Assembly: GCA_023251625.1 (NCBI GenBank) | Contig: JAHEYK010000006.1 | Location: 26,229 to 50,228, forward strand | Length of the DNA: 24,000 nucleotides | Reading direction: 5' to 3' | DNA from: Bacteroidota bacterium | GTDB taxonomy: Bacteria > Bacteroidota > Bacteroidia > Palsa-948 | Part shown: positions 1 through 14,055 of the stretch, piece by piece | Numbering within the stretch: position 1 is the first letter of the stretch | Layout of the letters: every line of letters begins with the position of its first letter | Notes under the pieces: model-generated | The model's input: only the letters and a program-made list of their open reading frames with translations | What the model was told of the DNA's origin: nothing | The model's database searches: none | Position numbers and translations under genes: made by a program

Positions 1-1512
1 TTCACTGTTAAAAACGAAGCTATATATAATGCATTTTCTACAGCGGAGATCACCGACCCGGTTAAAGTACGCCCCTGGAACAACAAGGCAAAGGCGGTGA
101 GGAAGCGTGCTCAGGAGATGTTTGATTATATAGAAAAGATCAAGAATGAGTTGATAGAACACGTAGAAGAAAAGGACATGACTACTGTAAAAGGCAAGAA
201 TGGCAGTGACAGTACAGTGAAGATCGCTTCTAATATTTTTTATATGGAAGGGAAGGACAATAACGTTGTGCCTACACACTATTTCATGGGAGAAGAGGAT
301 AAAGCCACTTCGGGTAATATTGCCGGTCAATTTAAAGAGAAGATTGCCAATTTCAAAAAAGACCTGATAACATATATCCCCGAGAAAGAAAAGAGAAATA
401 TTCACTTAGGATTGGAGATCGATGATGTTTGGTCACCCGGCGAAGGAATGATGATCACTTGGGAATCCAACAATTTCTACCACAACCCGGCGGTAGCCGT
501 AATTGCACTTCTTACAAAAATGCAGAACGATGTAAAAAATGCTGAAACAGATATTATCAGCGCTCTCTATAATCGTATCGATATCAACTCATTCAAGTTT
601 GATACACTTTCTGCACGCGTAAACGCAAATTCAAACTACGTACTGATCGGAGATGAATATAGAGCCGAAGTATTCGTTGCGGGTTTCAGTACCACTTCCA
701 ATCCTCAGATCTGGTTGGGGGACTTTGACAGTATAACCGGAAAACCAATTGGTGCTATTGACTCTACTTCTATTAAAGTTACTAATGGAGTTGGTATTTA
801 TTCTGTTTCTCCTTCAGCGGAAGGAACATCAGATTGGGGCGGAATTATCCGTATGAAAAACCCGGCAGATCCTAAGGCTCCGCCTCGCGTTTTCCCGTTC
901 AAATCACAGTTTAAATCTGCTCGCCCTGCAATTGTTGTATCAGCAGAGAAAATGAACGTACTTTATATAGGACTGGATAACCCTGTATCTGTTTCGGTTC
1001 CTGGTATTGCTGCTGAAGATTTACAGCCCTCTTGTTCAGGAGGAAGCATGTCAGGTTCCAGAGGAAAATACATGGTAAAAGTAGCTCAGTCAATGGCGGG
1101 TAAAGAATGTACGATAAATGTATCTGCAAAAACAAAAACAGGTACTAAATCTATGGGACAGGGAGTTAAATTCCGTGTTAAACCGGTTCCCAATCCTGTT
1201 CCTACCATCTATGGTAAGCGCGGTACTGACGTTATTAAGCAAGGTGAATTACAATTCGTAAAAAGTGTAGTCCCTATGATGGATAACTTCGAGTTTGAGC
1301 TTAAAATACCTGTTGCTTCTTTTGACGTATCCATGAACGTAAACGGTTTGGAGGTTACTGAATCTACAACCGGCGGATCATTAAGTGAAAAACAATCAGC
1401 ACTCATTAAGAAAGCTAAAAAAGGAAATAAGATATATATTGAAAAAGTTAAAGTAATCAAGCCGGGCGGACTAAATACAGAGATCGGCAGTGTTAACTTG
1501 AAGGTAATGTGA
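1..1512 (+). CDS. gldM: Gliding motility / type IX secretion protein GldM (PorM family), 5'-truncated by the window edge
   Basis: Frame 1 is open from nt 1 (FTVKNEAIYNAF... precedes the first listed start at 97); stop TGA at 1510-1512. NPAVAVIALLTKMQNDVKNAETDII and ARPAIVVSAEKMNVLYIGLDNPVSVSVPG match my recollection of Flavobacterium johnsoniae GldM (…LSAWQNDVKKTETDV…, …ATISADKMNVVYRGVVNPISVSFAG…). gldN follows directly, as in gldKLMN operons. Confidence 0.9.
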   Translation, partial: FTVKNEAIYNAFSTAEITDPVKVRPWNNKAKAVRKRAQEMFDYIEKIKNELIEHVEEKDMTTVKGKNGSDSTVKIASNIFYMEGKDNNVVPTHYFMGEEDKATSGNIAGQFKEKIANFKKDLITYIPEKEKRNIHLGLEIDDVWSPGEGMMITWESNNFYHNPAVAVIALLTKMQNDVKNAETDIISALYNRIDINSFKFDTLSARVNANSNYVLIGDEYRAEVFVAGFSTTSNPQIWLGDFDSITGKPIGAIDSTSIKVTNGVGIYSVSPSAEGTSDWGGIIRMKNPADPKAPPRVFPFKSQFKSARPAIVVSAEKMNVLYIGLDNPVSVSVPGIAAEDLQPSCSGGSMSGSRGKYMVKVAQSMAGKECTINVSAKTKTGTKSMGQGVKFRVKPVPNPVPTIYGKRGTDVIKQGELQFVKSVVPMMDNFEFELKIPVASFDVSMNVNGLEVTESTTGGSLSEKQSALIKKAKKGNKIYIEKVKVIKPGGLNTEIGSVNLKVM

Positions 1513-5111: not shown

Positions 5112-5698
5112 GCCGGTTGTTTGGGGATTGCCTTCGACAGGGATTTTCGCAGATTGAATTTGGCTTTTGATAAACTATCCTTGGAAGTATATTCGCTGAT
5201 ATCAAGCAGTTTAGATATTTCCGCATGAGTGTAGCCATCCAGTTCATGAAGATTATAGATCACCCGGTAAGAGGGAGTTAGCTGATGCAAGGCATCAACG
5301 ATCATCTTCTTATCGGCATGTTTCATGATCTGTTCATCAGATATTTCAGCACCGGTTTGTTTTTCCAGATCACGTATGCTTACCGTGCTGCTCACAAAAT
5401 ATTCTTTTTTATTGGCGTGCATGTGCCGTACAGCGGAGGATATGATCTCTTTTTTTATCCACTCTTCCAGGGGAATAGGAGGGGAATCTTTAGTTCTTTT
5501 GGCATTAGCATCTGCATAATTCCGGAAGCCATTAAAAACACTTTTGAAACCGTCTAAAAGAATTGCTTTTGCTTCTTGCTGGCTTTTTGCATAGCGAATG
5601 CAGATATGCATCATCTTTCGAAAATGAATATCGTACAATTCACGTTGGCTGGCATGTTCATACCTCAGGCAACCGCGTATGATCTCTTCTTCGCTCAT
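5108..5698 (-). CDS. ECF-type RNA polymerase sigma-70 family factor
   Basis: 196 aa. Region-2-like N-terminus (RELYDIHFRKMMHICIRYAKSQQEAKAILLDGF) and a region-4 HTH (YRVIYNLHELDGYTHAEISKLLDISEYTSKDSLSKAKFNLRKSL). Clear paralogue of the sigma gene at 6919-7452. Confidence 0.85.
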   Translation of the reverse strand: MSEEEIIRGCLRYEHASQRELYDIHFRKMMHICIRYAKSQQEAKAILLDGFKSVFNGFRNYADANAKRTKDSPPIPLEEWIKKEIISSAVRHMHANKKEYFVSSTVSIRDLEKQTGAEISDEQIMKHADKKMIVDALHQLTPSYRVIYNLHELDGYTHAEISKLLDISEYTSKDSLSKAKFNLRKSLSKAIPKQPA

Positions 5699-12839: not shown

Positions 12840-12856
12840 GCTGAGGCCCCCTCTAA

Positions 12857-12898
12857 ACCTGCCTGTCCGGCAGGCAGGTCTCCCCCTTCAGGGGAGAC
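12857..12898. repeat. Two abutting GC-rich perfect hairpins in the convergent intergenic region (REP-like; probable bidirectional terminator)
   Basis: Hairpin A: ACCTGCCTG (12857-12865) / CAGGCAGGT (12871-12879), loop TCCGG. Hairpin B: GTCTCCCC (12878-12885) / GGGGAGAC (12891-12898), loop CTTCA. A C-rich leader CCCCCTCTAAA precedes them. They lie between the sigma-54 activator stop (12839) and the tsaB stop (12916). Confidence 0.6.
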
Positions 12899-12915: not shown

Positions 12916-14055
12916 TCACTTTTTATTCTGGGCCGAAGAATCAACAAAATCCTTTAAGTAGAAAGGCTCGAAGTAAGCCACATCTTCAATTTTTTTCTCG
13001 GTAAAACATCTTTCAGCAAGAGGAACCATGAATTTTGCCGAGGGATGAATATCATCTATGAAAACTGCATTCGGATGAGAAATTATTTGTTTACATTTTG
13101 ATGCACCATCTCCAAAGAAGAGTATTTTGTTTTTCTGCAGCAGATCTGTAAATGAATTTTCGTTAATTATTTCCGCAGAAGTTTTTTTTATTTCATTCAG
13201 CTGTTCATCGTAAATAGCGCAATAGACCTCCATGCGTCTAGCATCTATCATAGGACAAAACAATTTTTTAGTTTCTTTCGCCCCACCCCCTTCCCCTCCC
13301 CTCAAGGGAGGGGGGAATTTTGATTCAAGAATAGTTTTTATTTGAGAGACAACCAAATAAATATCATCGTACACTTCTTCGTTTGTAAACCGCAATACAG
13401 AAAATCTTTTATCTCCTATAATCTCTTCTCTTAGTTTATCCTCTTCCTTCCTAAACTTATGAATCGTTCCATCAAGTTCAATTACTAATTGTTTTTCTAA
13501 ACAGACAAAATCACAAATAAATTTATCAATAGCATGTTGACGCCTTATTTTATATCCGGTTTTTTTATTACGCAATTTTTCCCAAAGCAATTCTTCTGCT
13601 TTTGTAGGAGCTTTTCTCATTTCTCGGCTATATTCTTTCAATCCATCCCATATTTTTCGTTTAGCTGTGTGGTAAATGGGACTGCTCCCCTCTCCTTGAG
13701 GAGAGGGGTTAGGGGAGAGGCGATTCTCCAAAGAATTTCGGATTTGCCCAGCCGCCATCGCCTCCAGGGAGTTGATCGCGATCAAGGGTTTGTCAAGCGC
13801 ATAACACAAACCTTTTGCAGTGGAGACTCCAATCCTCAATCCTGTAAATGAACCGGGACCCTTGCTTACGGCAATTGCATCTATATTCTGCAAATGGATC
13901 TTTGCCTGATTACAAACATCCTCAATGTAAAGGGTAAGGTTTTCGGAGTGGGAATATTGCTCGTCAATTGATTCTTTCAATGCCAGAAGTTTTCCATTCT
14001 TCCCTAACGCAACAGAACAAGCTTTGGTGGAAGTTTCTAAACAGAGAGTAGTCAT
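12916..14055 (-). CDS. tsaB: tRNA threonylcarbamoyladenosine (t6A) biosynthesis protein TsaB (YeaZ) carrying an in-frame ~147-aa DUF559 endonuclease-domain insertion
   Basis: aa 1-111 (LETSTKACSVAL…SKGPGSFTGLRIGVSTAKGL…) and aa 262-379 (…LFCPMIDARRMEVYCAIYDE…) align by eye to E. coli YeaZ (…[20 protein letters not shown]… / …VLAAIDARMGEVYWAEY…). Together they give the normal ~229 aa. The intervening segment is foreign (see the mobile_element feature). The reading frame is uninterrupted. Confidence 0.85.
   Translation of the reverse strand: MTTLCLETSTKACSVALGKNGKLLALKESIDEQYSHSENLTLYIEDVCNQAKIHLQNIDAIAVSKGPGSFTGLRIGVSTAKGLCYALDKPLIAINSLEAMAAGQIRNSLENRLSPNPSPQGEGSSPIYHTAKRKIWDGLKEYSREMRKAPTKAEELLWEKLRNKKTGYKIRRQHAIDKFICDFVCLEKQLVIELDGTIHKFRKEEDKLREEIIGDKRFSVLRFTNEEVYDDIYLVVSQIKTILESKFPPPLRGGEGGGAKETKKLFCPMIDARRMEVYCAIYDEQLNEIKKTSAEIINENSFTDLLQKNKILFFGDGASKCKQIISHPNAVFIDDIHPSAKFMVPLAERCFTEKKIEDVAYFEPFYLKDFVDSSAQNKK
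13281..13720 (-). mobile_element. DUF559 (Vsr-like PD-(D/E)xK endonuclease) cassette with ~35-nt GC-rich hairpin-containing imperfect terminal inverted repeats, inserted in frame in tsaB
   Basis: The core (about 13321-13674) encodes REMRKAPTKAEELLWEKLRNKKTGYKIRRQHAIDKFICDFVCLEKQLVIELDGTIHKF…FSVLRFTNEEV, the DUF559 pattern as I remember it from YcjD-like proteins. Ends: 13281-13315 CCCCACCCCCTTCCCCTCCCCTCAAGGGAGGGGGG, and the reverse complement of 13686-13720, CCTCTCCCCTAACCCCTCTCCTCAAGGAGAGGGGAG. They match at 25/35 positions in my hand alignment. Each end holds a perfect hairpin (13293-13313 and 13687-13708). The core is AT-rich and the ends are GC-rich. Exact boundaries are uncertain by a few nt. 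Confidence 0.6.

Follow-up and report, generated by a model that had tools for sequence, protein, structure and literature searches.

An in-frame DUF559 nuclease cassette with hairpin-plus-mirror ends in tsaB and other housekeeping genes of Bacteroidota

Introduction

In a 24,000-nt stretch of a Bacteroidota bacterium (assembly GCA_023251625.1, contig JAHEYK010000006.1, positions 26,229 to 50,228; hereafter the window), the essential tRNA-modification gene tsaB is interrupted in frame by a cassette that encodes a predicted DUF559/Vsr-like PD-(D/E)xK endonuclease between two terminal inverted repeats. Cassettes of the same type lie in frame in 77 of the 80 related loci analyzed and in at least 17 host genes, so that the selfish in-frame cassette suggested for this locus by a first-pass annotation of the sequence gains support. 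Beyond that annotation, each end consists of a hairpin and a mirror box, a predicted triplex motif of the BoxC/PIT class, the tsaB insertion is old and has mostly diverged along with its host, and single ends also occur in frame within genes. Judged from sequence, and on a slight balance of the evidence, the cassette would behave as a selfish element of the homing type, which is translated through and not spliced. A full-text search restricted to open-access papers and bioRxiv returned neither a published description of in-frame cassettes nor a paper linking DUF559 to triplex repeats; the cassettes thus appear to form a widespread family of small selfish elements that, like its link to triplex repeats, is undescribed.

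The interrupted tsaB gene

The tsaB open reading frame (ORF) and the adjoining gap contain the following features, with coordinates counted from the first letter of the window:

12916..14055, minus strand: tsaB::DUF559 ORF, 379 aa; matches to TIGR03725 and PF04480, exact protein (P0001) in public assemblies
13723..14055, minus strand: N-terminal part of TsaB, aa 1-111; TIGR03725 stretch 4-103 and alignment A1
13279..13722, minus strand: whole cassette, 444 bp or 148 codons, aa 112-259; gap relative to empty TsaB, boundaries from L001 and L002
13687..13722, minus strand: left terminal inverted repeat (coding strand); box A matches the mirror of the arm at 9/9 positions
13327..13641, minus strand: predicted DUF559/Vsr-like PD-(D/E)xK nuclease core, aa 139-243; PF04480, E 8e-29
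13279..13314, minus strand: right terminal inverted repeat (coding strand); mirror match 7/8
12916..13278, minus strand: C-terminal part of TsaB, aa 260-379, with the stop codon; TIGR03725 and alignment
12846..12898, plus strand: intergenic solo end of the cassette type, after tsaB; stem class as in the ends of L071 and L017

The TsaB profile TIGR03725 matches the ORF in two stretches that cover both halves (E 1e-48; 166 bits, cut-off 69.3), and PF04480 (DUF559) matches aa 139-243 with 100.1 bits (gathering score 20.6). When aligned with 12 uninterrupted TsaB proteins, aa 112-259 fall into a clean gap; the GPGSFTGLRIG motif and the C-terminal motifs of TsaB are invariant, and the junctions SLEN|RLSP and GGGA|KETK differ between homologues. 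The succession of TsaB, insert and TsaB had been recognized in the first-pass annotation and holds, whereas its coordinates need correction: the insert comprises 148 codons and not about 147, the C-terminal part begins at aa 260 and not at aa 262, and the two host parts (aa 1-111 and 260-379) add up to 231 aa. The neighboring genes (T9SS, PorP, CHU_C) give the locus a Bacteroidota context.

The cassette has the termini CGCC.../...GGCG and is bounded by inverted-repeat arms of 37 nt (13278-13314 and 13687-13723) that are 76% complementary and contain hairpins of 9 bp (CCCCTCTCC/GGAGAGGGG) and 8 bp (CCCCTCCC/GGGAGGGG). The left repeat is composed of box A CGCCTCTCCCC, TAA, the arm CCCCTCTCC, the loop TCAA and the arm GGAGAGGGG, and is translated into RLSPNPSPQGEG; the right repeat reads CCCCCCTCCC, TTGAG, GGGAGGGG, AA and GGGGGTGGGGCG, and is translated into PPPLRGGEGGGA. 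The DNA hairpin of the left repeat folds at -10 kcal/mol (z -3.1), and the hairpin motif occurs twice in the window, compared with 0 occurrences expected from shuffles. The core is AT-rich, with a GC content of 0.28-0.36 as opposed to 0.49-0.57 at the ends. This anatomy agrees with what had been read from the letters alone, namely imperfect inverted copies with a hairpin in each, GC-rich ends around an AT-rich core, and repeats that encode linkers.

An AlphaFold2 model of the 379-aa protein, built with 34 sequences in the alignment, reaches a mean predicted local distance difference test (pLDDT) score of 80.7, with values of about 90 for the TsaB halves and 73-89 for the DUF559 part, whereas the linkers (aa 111-127 and 249-260) stay below 50. 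The insert is therefore modeled as a separate folded module tied to the folded TsaB by disordered tethers, and a cassette in a surface loop of TsaB would fit a tolerated insertion.

The solo end after tsaB (12846-12898) sits between the convergent genes for a sigma-54 activator and TsaB. It is composed of a box GCCCCCTCT, AAA, the arm TCTCCCCC, the loop TTCA and the arm GGGGAGA, and folds at -16 kcal/mol (z -3.7); a perfect 21-nt hairpin, CCTGCCTGTCCGGCAGGCAGG, is nested exactly at its 3-nt spacer.

Host genes and the cassette family

With each GTDB species represented by one genome, a scan with the nuclease-core profile yielded more than 585 relatives, of which the best 80 were used for the analyses of loci. 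According to their contig labels all of these 80 belong to Bacteroidota, except for one labeled Candidatus Nomurabacteria. The cassettes that lie in frame are found inside large ORFs of 436-1409 aa, where the DUF559 gene of about 110 aa lacks its own start and stop codon; free-standing genes of the cassette type with their own start and stop also occur. The hosts include:

LeuRS (at least two sites): 39 loci
IleRS: 8 loci
IcmF: 8 loci
MetH (several sites): 5 loci
Type ISP/Eco57I-like restriction-modification enzyme: 5 loci
RecG: 4 loci
RecJ: 2 loci
TsaB: 1 locus
CoA-transferase III: 1 locus
S-adenosylmethionine (SAM) methyltransferase: 1 locus
Acetyl-CoA synthetase (Acs): 1 locus
UDP-GlcNAc 2-epimerase: 1 locus
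TPR-SpoIIE protein: 1 locus

The cassettes are inserted in variable loops that adjoin highly conserved host motifs, for example RNWIGKS...|...FTTRPDT in LeuRS, WFDSG...|...EGxDQxRGWF in IleRS and DEQHRFG...|...TATPIPRT in RecG. On a tree of 121 cores, the nucleases cluster by host site, with clades for IleRS, RecG, IcmF, RecJ, the restriction-modification enzyme and three groups from TsaB (TsaB-A, TsaB-B and TsaB-B'), while the LeuRS cores fall into at least six lineages.

Several loci stand out from this pattern. In the contig labeled Candidatus Nomurabacteria (L012, MFUQ01000016.1) the SAM methyltransferase is preceded by a fused cassette with ends of the typical kind, which could reflect mis-binning or a genuine occurrence beyond Bacteroidota. 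Cassettes in or beside genes of the restriction-modification type (type ISP/Eco57I, PglX, DUF1156) were seen at L038, L040, L050, L064, L069, L150, L151 and L153, and the cores from such loci cluster with free-standing copies. In the JGI annotation, small DUF559 ORFs carry the names RecG, methylmalonyl-CoA mutase and leucyl-tRNA synthetase, most likely by annotation transfer from cassette-bearing hosts.

Terminal repeats with a hairpin and a mirror box

The ends of 81 cassettes were compared. Most cassettes are flanked by GC-rich hairpins of 7-12 bp with loops of mostly 3 nt; when one mismatch is allowed, almost all have a hairpin at one or both ends, and a search for perfect stems finds 55 left and 43 right hairpins. 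The terminal inverted repeats of the family are about 33 nt long, with the left consensus GCCTCACCCC-NNN-CCCCTCTCC-AAA-GGAGAGGGG and its reverse complement at the right. The stems vary (CCCCTCCCC/GGGGAGGGG, CCCCCTCC/GGAGGGGG, CCCTTCCCC/GGGGAAGGG and CTCCCCC/GGGGGAG), and both arms covary in every variant. The loops of the left and right end also tend to be reverse-complementary (mean match 2.0 of 3, compared with 1.25 after shuffling, p < 0.0002; 7 perfect matches, compared with 1.9 expected, p = 0.0016), indicating that the ends are true terminal inverted repeats.

The outer box is neither a direct nor an inverted copy of the pyrimidine arm of the hairpin, but its mirror image. Over 114 ends the mirror identity is 0.90, compared with 0.73 for the direct orientation, such that the mirror wins in 97 cases, ties in 16 and loses in 1; when the boxes are permuted among elements, the value drops to 0.772 ± 0.008 (p < 0.0005). 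The spacer between box and hairpin is almost always 3 nt, and the mirror relation is kept in at least 14 covarying stem classes. Since neither Watson-Crick pairing nor gene conversion can maintain a mirror repeat, the box would be placed as a third strand in the groove of the hairpin, and the ends carry the signature of a predicted intrastrand triple helix. A frequent change in the box is T to A (CCTCACCCC), which would correspond to a T in the third block of the G-rich strand (GGGGTGAGG). The antiparallel purine-motif triplex permits both T·A-T and A·A-T, and the T/A variation of the box may thus favor a purine-motif triplex on the G-rich strand.

Every one of the three frames is used by the hosts to read the ends (left 28/27/5, right 21/22/6), in keeping with the initial description of the ends as free of stop codons in at least two frames; it is therefore the DNA of the ends that is conserved and not the linker peptide. 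The proposed structure of the ends is based on this comparative evidence: ViennaRNA folding covers the hairpin only, and its z-scores are not decisive, with one C/G-rich end folding no better than shuffles (z -0.26).

Empty sites, solo ends and tandem ends

Solo ends of about 35 nt or 12 codons are found in frame and in both orientations, and are translated into LTPNPSPKERG or SPLERGxGGEA. Of 26 solo ends outside cassettes, 22 share their host gene with a cassette (binomial p = 6e-10), which suggests local spread or a gene-specific tolerance. Loci with such ends include L005, L007, L031, L032, L035, L043, L047, L051, L058 and L060. Site 570 of LeuRS is empty in L007, L008, L011, L068 and L037, holds a solo end in L005, L047 and L066, and a full cassette in L009, L061, L067 and L071; site 300 is empty in L009, L067, L071 and L061, and contains two tandem solo ends in L077. 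A G-run or GGTGAG lies beside the empty site 570, although it is merely suggestive as a target motif. From the comparison of empty, solo and full sites in LeuRS and tsaB no target-site duplication could be defined, the host loops being too variable.

Tandem extra end units adjoin the cassettes of P0007, P0026, P0018, P0020, L009, L023, L032, L047, L055, L073 and L077, for example as two or three units of SLSxGEG or LTPxPSPxERG, so that the ends can apparently duplicate locally.

History of the tsaB cassette

A search of 5.8 billion protein clusters recovered the exact protein of the window and about 28 further clusters that combine TsaB with DUF559, 11 of which (group A) are 69-76% and about 16 of which (group B) are 48-57% identical to it. 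In the alignment, the insert occupies the identical loop in all of them. Uninterrupted TsaB proteins are equally close in the host part (72-81% identity), and in a tree of the host part alone empty and filled proteins are interleaved. Among relatives the site is full, empty or occupied by ends only: the loop of P0024 has the two ends alone (72 nt, CGCCTCTCCCCTGGCCCCTCTCCTCGAGGAGAGGG|CCTCCCTCCCCTGAGGGGAGGGAAAGAGGGAGGGGCG), P0112 has a single end (SLSFGEGRGEV), and the ends in P0068 and P0061 are degenerate. The segment is thus not present in all related TsaB proteins, and the search of relatives for the ends, which the initial description had proposed together with the alignment, the PF04480 comparison and the structure prediction, has revealed in-frame copies, solo ends and empty sites alike.

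Host part and insert are correlated in their pairwise identities, with r = 0.78 over all pairs, 0.48 in group A and 0.63 in group B. The cassette in tsaB is therefore old, mostly inherited with its host and repeatedly lost, and represents a vertically maintained member of the family. As to a single or multiple entry into tsaB, the cassette lineages A, B and B' do not group together and differ in their end classes, with the deep neighbor-joining branches being unreliable.

In the contig of P0002, a gene for a 153-aa Y1_Tnp protein (IS200/RAYT-like) lies between the sigma-54 activator and radical-SAM genes, three genes from tsaB. This gene is absent from the corresponding position of the window, and in P0002 it is unlinked to the cassette.

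The nuclease core

A profile of the cassette matches the PDB entries 3hrl (E 5e-29) and 3r3p, the catalytic domain of I-Bth0305I (E 5e-6). Asp72, Glu83, Asp85 and His89 (insert numbering) are invariant in 121 sequences, in line with the acidic and histidine residues initially described as intact, and Arg61, Arg62, Gln63 and His64 are likewise conserved. The product of the cassette is therefore predicted to be a DUF559/Vsr-like PD-(D/E)xK endonuclease. In all informative pairs, the ratio of nonsynonymous to synonymous substitution rates (dN/dS) lies at 0.04-0.14 for the core, compared with 0.02-0.18 for the hosts, and the core is under purifying selection.

In two pairs of loci the cassette is much younger than the host gene. 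In LeuRS of L037 and L039 the synonymous divergence (dS) is 0.09 for the core and 1.25 for the host, and third codon positions are identical at 144/152 sites of the cassette, compared with 333/532 in the rest of the gene (p = 5e-17); the identity is also raised in the flanks, with 0.80 at third positions of the first 20 flanking codons, and decays beyond them. In RecJ of L042 and L053 the corresponding values are 103/123 and 226/365 (p = 4e-6), and the edges are sharp. Two other pairs show no such difference, so that the excess similarity is not intrinsic to the codons of the cassette, and the LeuRS and RecJ pairs are evidence for recent lateral movement of the cassette into the same site in these two hosts. 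Unrelated to the cassette site, aa 760-860 of LeuRS are highly divergent between L037 and L039 and differ in length by 60 aa, in proteins that are otherwise about 97% identical.

Relationship to BoxC, PIT and TMECO repeats

The intrastrand triplex motifs known as BoxC, PIT elements or TMECO (Holder et al., 2015; PMC4666352) resemble the cassette ends in having a C-rich stem, a loop, a G-rich stem, a 3-nt loop and a second, mirroring G-rich block. The TMECO pattern is CCCTCNCCC-N3-6-GGGNGAGGG-N3-GGGNGAGGG, and its purine-motif triplex has been demonstrated in vitro by circular dichroism and nuclear magnetic resonance (PMC4666352). The E. coli K-12 genome contains 23 copies, all intergenic and tied to local instability, and remnants of a transposase or integrase were "never found" near them (PMC4666352). 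Knowledge of such repeats dates back to the 1990s, and they have been linked to genome instability but to no mobility function (PMC4666352). By contrast, the motifs of the cassette are the inverted ends of a nuclease gene and lie within translated ORFs, whereas TMECO elements are intergenic and come without a mobility gene; furthermore, the triplex of the cassette ends is predicted from sequence. The exact TMECO pattern has no match in the window.

In E. coli itself, an exact TMECO lies 168 bp downstream of the DUF559 gene ycjD and is preceded by a duplicated fragment of the 3' end of ycjD (L085, 5206-5240 on the minus strand and 5250-5410; K-12 NC_000913.3 around 1351200-1351410). This arrangement resembles what would remain of the right end of a cassette. 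About 38% of complete E. coli genomes lose their similarity to K-12 about 40 bp from this TMECO, at a point where the eef efflux operon is inserted (L149, O157:H7), in agreement with the instability reported for such motifs. The variation was considered as an empty ycjD site and rejected, since it represents the insertion of the eef operon beside the TMECO.

Among eight DUF559 loci of plasmids and chromids, six have hairpin-plus-mirror motifs no more than about 200 bp from the gene, in many cases on either side of it and in inverted orientation, compared with about 0 in shuffled sequences. These six come from Synechocystis sp. B12, Pseudanabaena, two Deinococcus, N. gonorrhoeae and S. meliloti (L150, L152, L154, L155, L156 and L157), and none was detected at the remaining two of the eight (L151 and L153). 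The cleanest example is D. proteolyticus (L155), where motifs at 616-647 (plus strand) and 1009-1040 (minus strand) flank the coding sequence at 665-1006 with a mirror match of 8/8. An independent hint is provided by published work on programmed inversions, in which "DUF559 domain-containing protein" shows, without further comment, a 14-fold enrichment among the genes that inverted repeats overlap (PMC9881135). It is conceivable, if with less than even confidence, that DUF559 nucleases are the missing protein partner of the BoxC/PIT/TM repeats and that both together form an unrecognized, cross-phylum class of mobile elements with triple-helix-forming ends, in which the dispersed repeats would be non-autonomous or remnant copies and the Bacteroidota cassettes would occupy an intein-like niche without splicing.

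Proposed mechanism and alternative explanations

In Bacteroidota, the cassette resides in frame within surface loops that belong to conserved housekeeping proteins. As a homing-type element it would be translated there, the repeats into disordered Pro/Ser/Gly/Glu linkers and the nuclease into an extra domain. Translation-through, in place of splicing, would spare the essential host gene, and because such a host tolerates only in-frame deletions, the cassette would be hard to lose. The fused nuclease may cut alleles that are free of the cassette or carry a solo end, and repair of the break by gene conversion would copy the cassette into the cut allele, with the triplex/hairpin ends serving as cis-acting recombinogenic sites that also encode linkers and are stop-free in most frames. 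Several observations weigh against this reading. Homing alone leaves the strong conservation of the ends and the spread of single ends unexplained, and two of the four informative pairs lack excess similarity in the cassette. For tsaB there is no signal of recent transfer, with dS being saturated in the available DNA pair, and its pattern fits one or few ancient insertions followed by losses. The trees are neighbor-joining trees of short alignments with weakly resolved deep branches. Viral contigs contain no close relative of the cassette, but only distant DUF559 genes (at most 41% identity), for which reason phages were rejected as its vector.

The conservation of the ends and the solo ends are better accounted for by a repeat-dependent transposon or an element similar to miniature inverted-repeat transposable elements (MITEs), an explanation to which we give a minor, yet real, chance. 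The ends would then be cut by DUF559 as a structure-specific nuclease or by an enzyme acting in trans, e.g. a Y1 transposase of the IS200/RAYT type; cassettes, double ends and solo ends would all move, and the in-frame copies would be the survivors of selection. As in transposons and MITEs with terminal inverted repeats, such repeats bound the cassette, in which the nuclease is the only gene, and they are kept across lineages whose cores are merely about 45% identical. The 72-nt double-end element in tsaB of L001, solo ends in both orientations and all frames, their concentration in cassette-bearing genes, which suggests local hopping, the number of host genes, the several cassette lineages in LeuRS, the sharp boundary in the RecJ pair and the Y1_Tnp gene near tsaB in P0002 point in the same direction. 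However, no target-site duplication is definable, no transposase is linked to the cassettes and PD-(D/E)xK nucleases hydrolyze DNA but are not known to catalyze strand transfer. Moreover, the cassettes cluster by host site and not by genome, near-identical copies at different sites were not seen, and the identity in the LeuRS pair is raised into the flanks, as with gene conversion. A domesticated fusion, in which the nuclease is kept for a service to the host such as repair, defense or regulation, is improbable. It agrees with purifying selection on the core that equals that on the host gene, with the long co-divergence with tsaB and with the invariance of the catalytic-type residues, but an active selfish nuclease is likewise expected to be under purifying selection. 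Furthermore, no fewer than 17 unrelated proteins contain the same module, which also exists in free-standing form, is patchy among close relatives with empty sites and footprints, and can be laterally replaced on its own. The PADLOC defense library gave no match for the cassette, so that a defense system was rejected, and PHROGs returned only weak matches of unknown function.

A cassette that is excised from the DNA or spliced out of the RNA or the protein, so as to yield a functional TsaB, is very improbable. The ends can pair, with the double-end form folding at -28.6 kcal/mol, and tRNA-splicing endonucleases are among the PD-(D/E)xK-like folds (PMC3424549). Against this, 77 of 80 loci and about 28 TsaB clusters contain many indels and yet keep the frame open through both ends into the C-terminal part of the host, and the modeled disordered linkers between two well-folded modules would fit a tolerated insertion. 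An intein was rejected, since Pfam gives only TsaD and DUF559, with no Hint fold and no conserved residues or nucleophile at the junctions; an intron was rejected, since no Rfam family reached its gathering score and the sub-threshold matches to RAGATH-25, whalefall-1 and ylbH were dismissed. The cassette is thus neither intein nor intron, as had been suspected from its sequence. A chimeric assembly or an annotation artifact has a negligible probability: the source contig is of the metagenome type, but the same architecture is present in dozens of independent assemblies (NCBI, ENA, JGI, Logan), among them isolate genomes for other hosts, e.g. of Flavobacterium, Tenacibaculum, Aequorivita, Daejeonella and Mucilaginibacter.

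Comparison with known systems and significance

Homing endonucleases are usually housed in self-splicing introns, in inteins or as free-standing genes between other genes, whereas the cassette lies in frame inside an ORF. The closest enzymes are the Vsr-like (EDxHD) homing endonucleases, including I-Bth0305I (PMC3239194) and those of fractured genes (PMC2677866), which share a related fold (the match to 3r3p), selfishness, residence in conserved housekeeping genes, site-specific lineages and presence/absence polymorphism. They differ in that they lie in self-splicing introns or between the halves of split inteins, while the cassette has no splicing element and is co-translated, and in that homing elements do not need structured terminal inverted repeats. 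Like the cassette, inteins are found in frame in essential conserved proteins, are co-translated and often carry a homing endonuclease, but the cassette has neither Hint domain nor junction nucleophiles nor the His-Asn pair, and is most likely retained in the mature protein.

Rickettsia palindromic elements, as reportedly described by Ogata et al. in 2000, are short selfish palindromes that lie in frame in many genes and are tolerated as surface peptides. They are the best analogue of the 35-nt solo ends and the 72-nt double end, but encode no enzyme, are not triplex motifs and belong to a different phylum and sequence family. Repetitive extragenic palindromic (REP) sequences and REPINs with their REP-associated tyrosine transposases (RAYTs) share with the cassette the dispersed hairpin repeats, the inverted copies that flank a single-copy enzyme gene and the coexistence of singlets and doublets. 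By contrast, the cassette has a mirror box and copies inside ORFs, and encloses a gene for a PD-(D/E)xK nuclease and not for a Y1 HUH transposase, so that its assignment to REP/RAYT was rejected.

The cassette therefore combines known kinds of elements, namely homing endonuclease genes, in-frame palindromic elements and pairs of repeat and enzyme, with a substantial probability of defining a new class. If the link to DUF559 is true, the BoxC/PIT/TM repeats would gain a concrete candidate enzyme, which makes the question directly testable. The insertion points would be natural permissive sites with linkers for protein engineering, and the family may contain new structure- or site-specific nucleases. 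For the Bacteroidota, many over-long LeuRS, IleRS, RecG, MetH, IcmF and TsaB proteins would be explained, and so would the names RecG, LeuRS or mutase that small DUF559 ORFs wrongly carry, and translation-through with ends that serve as flexible linkers could represent a third way, besides introns and inteins, of occupying an essential gene.

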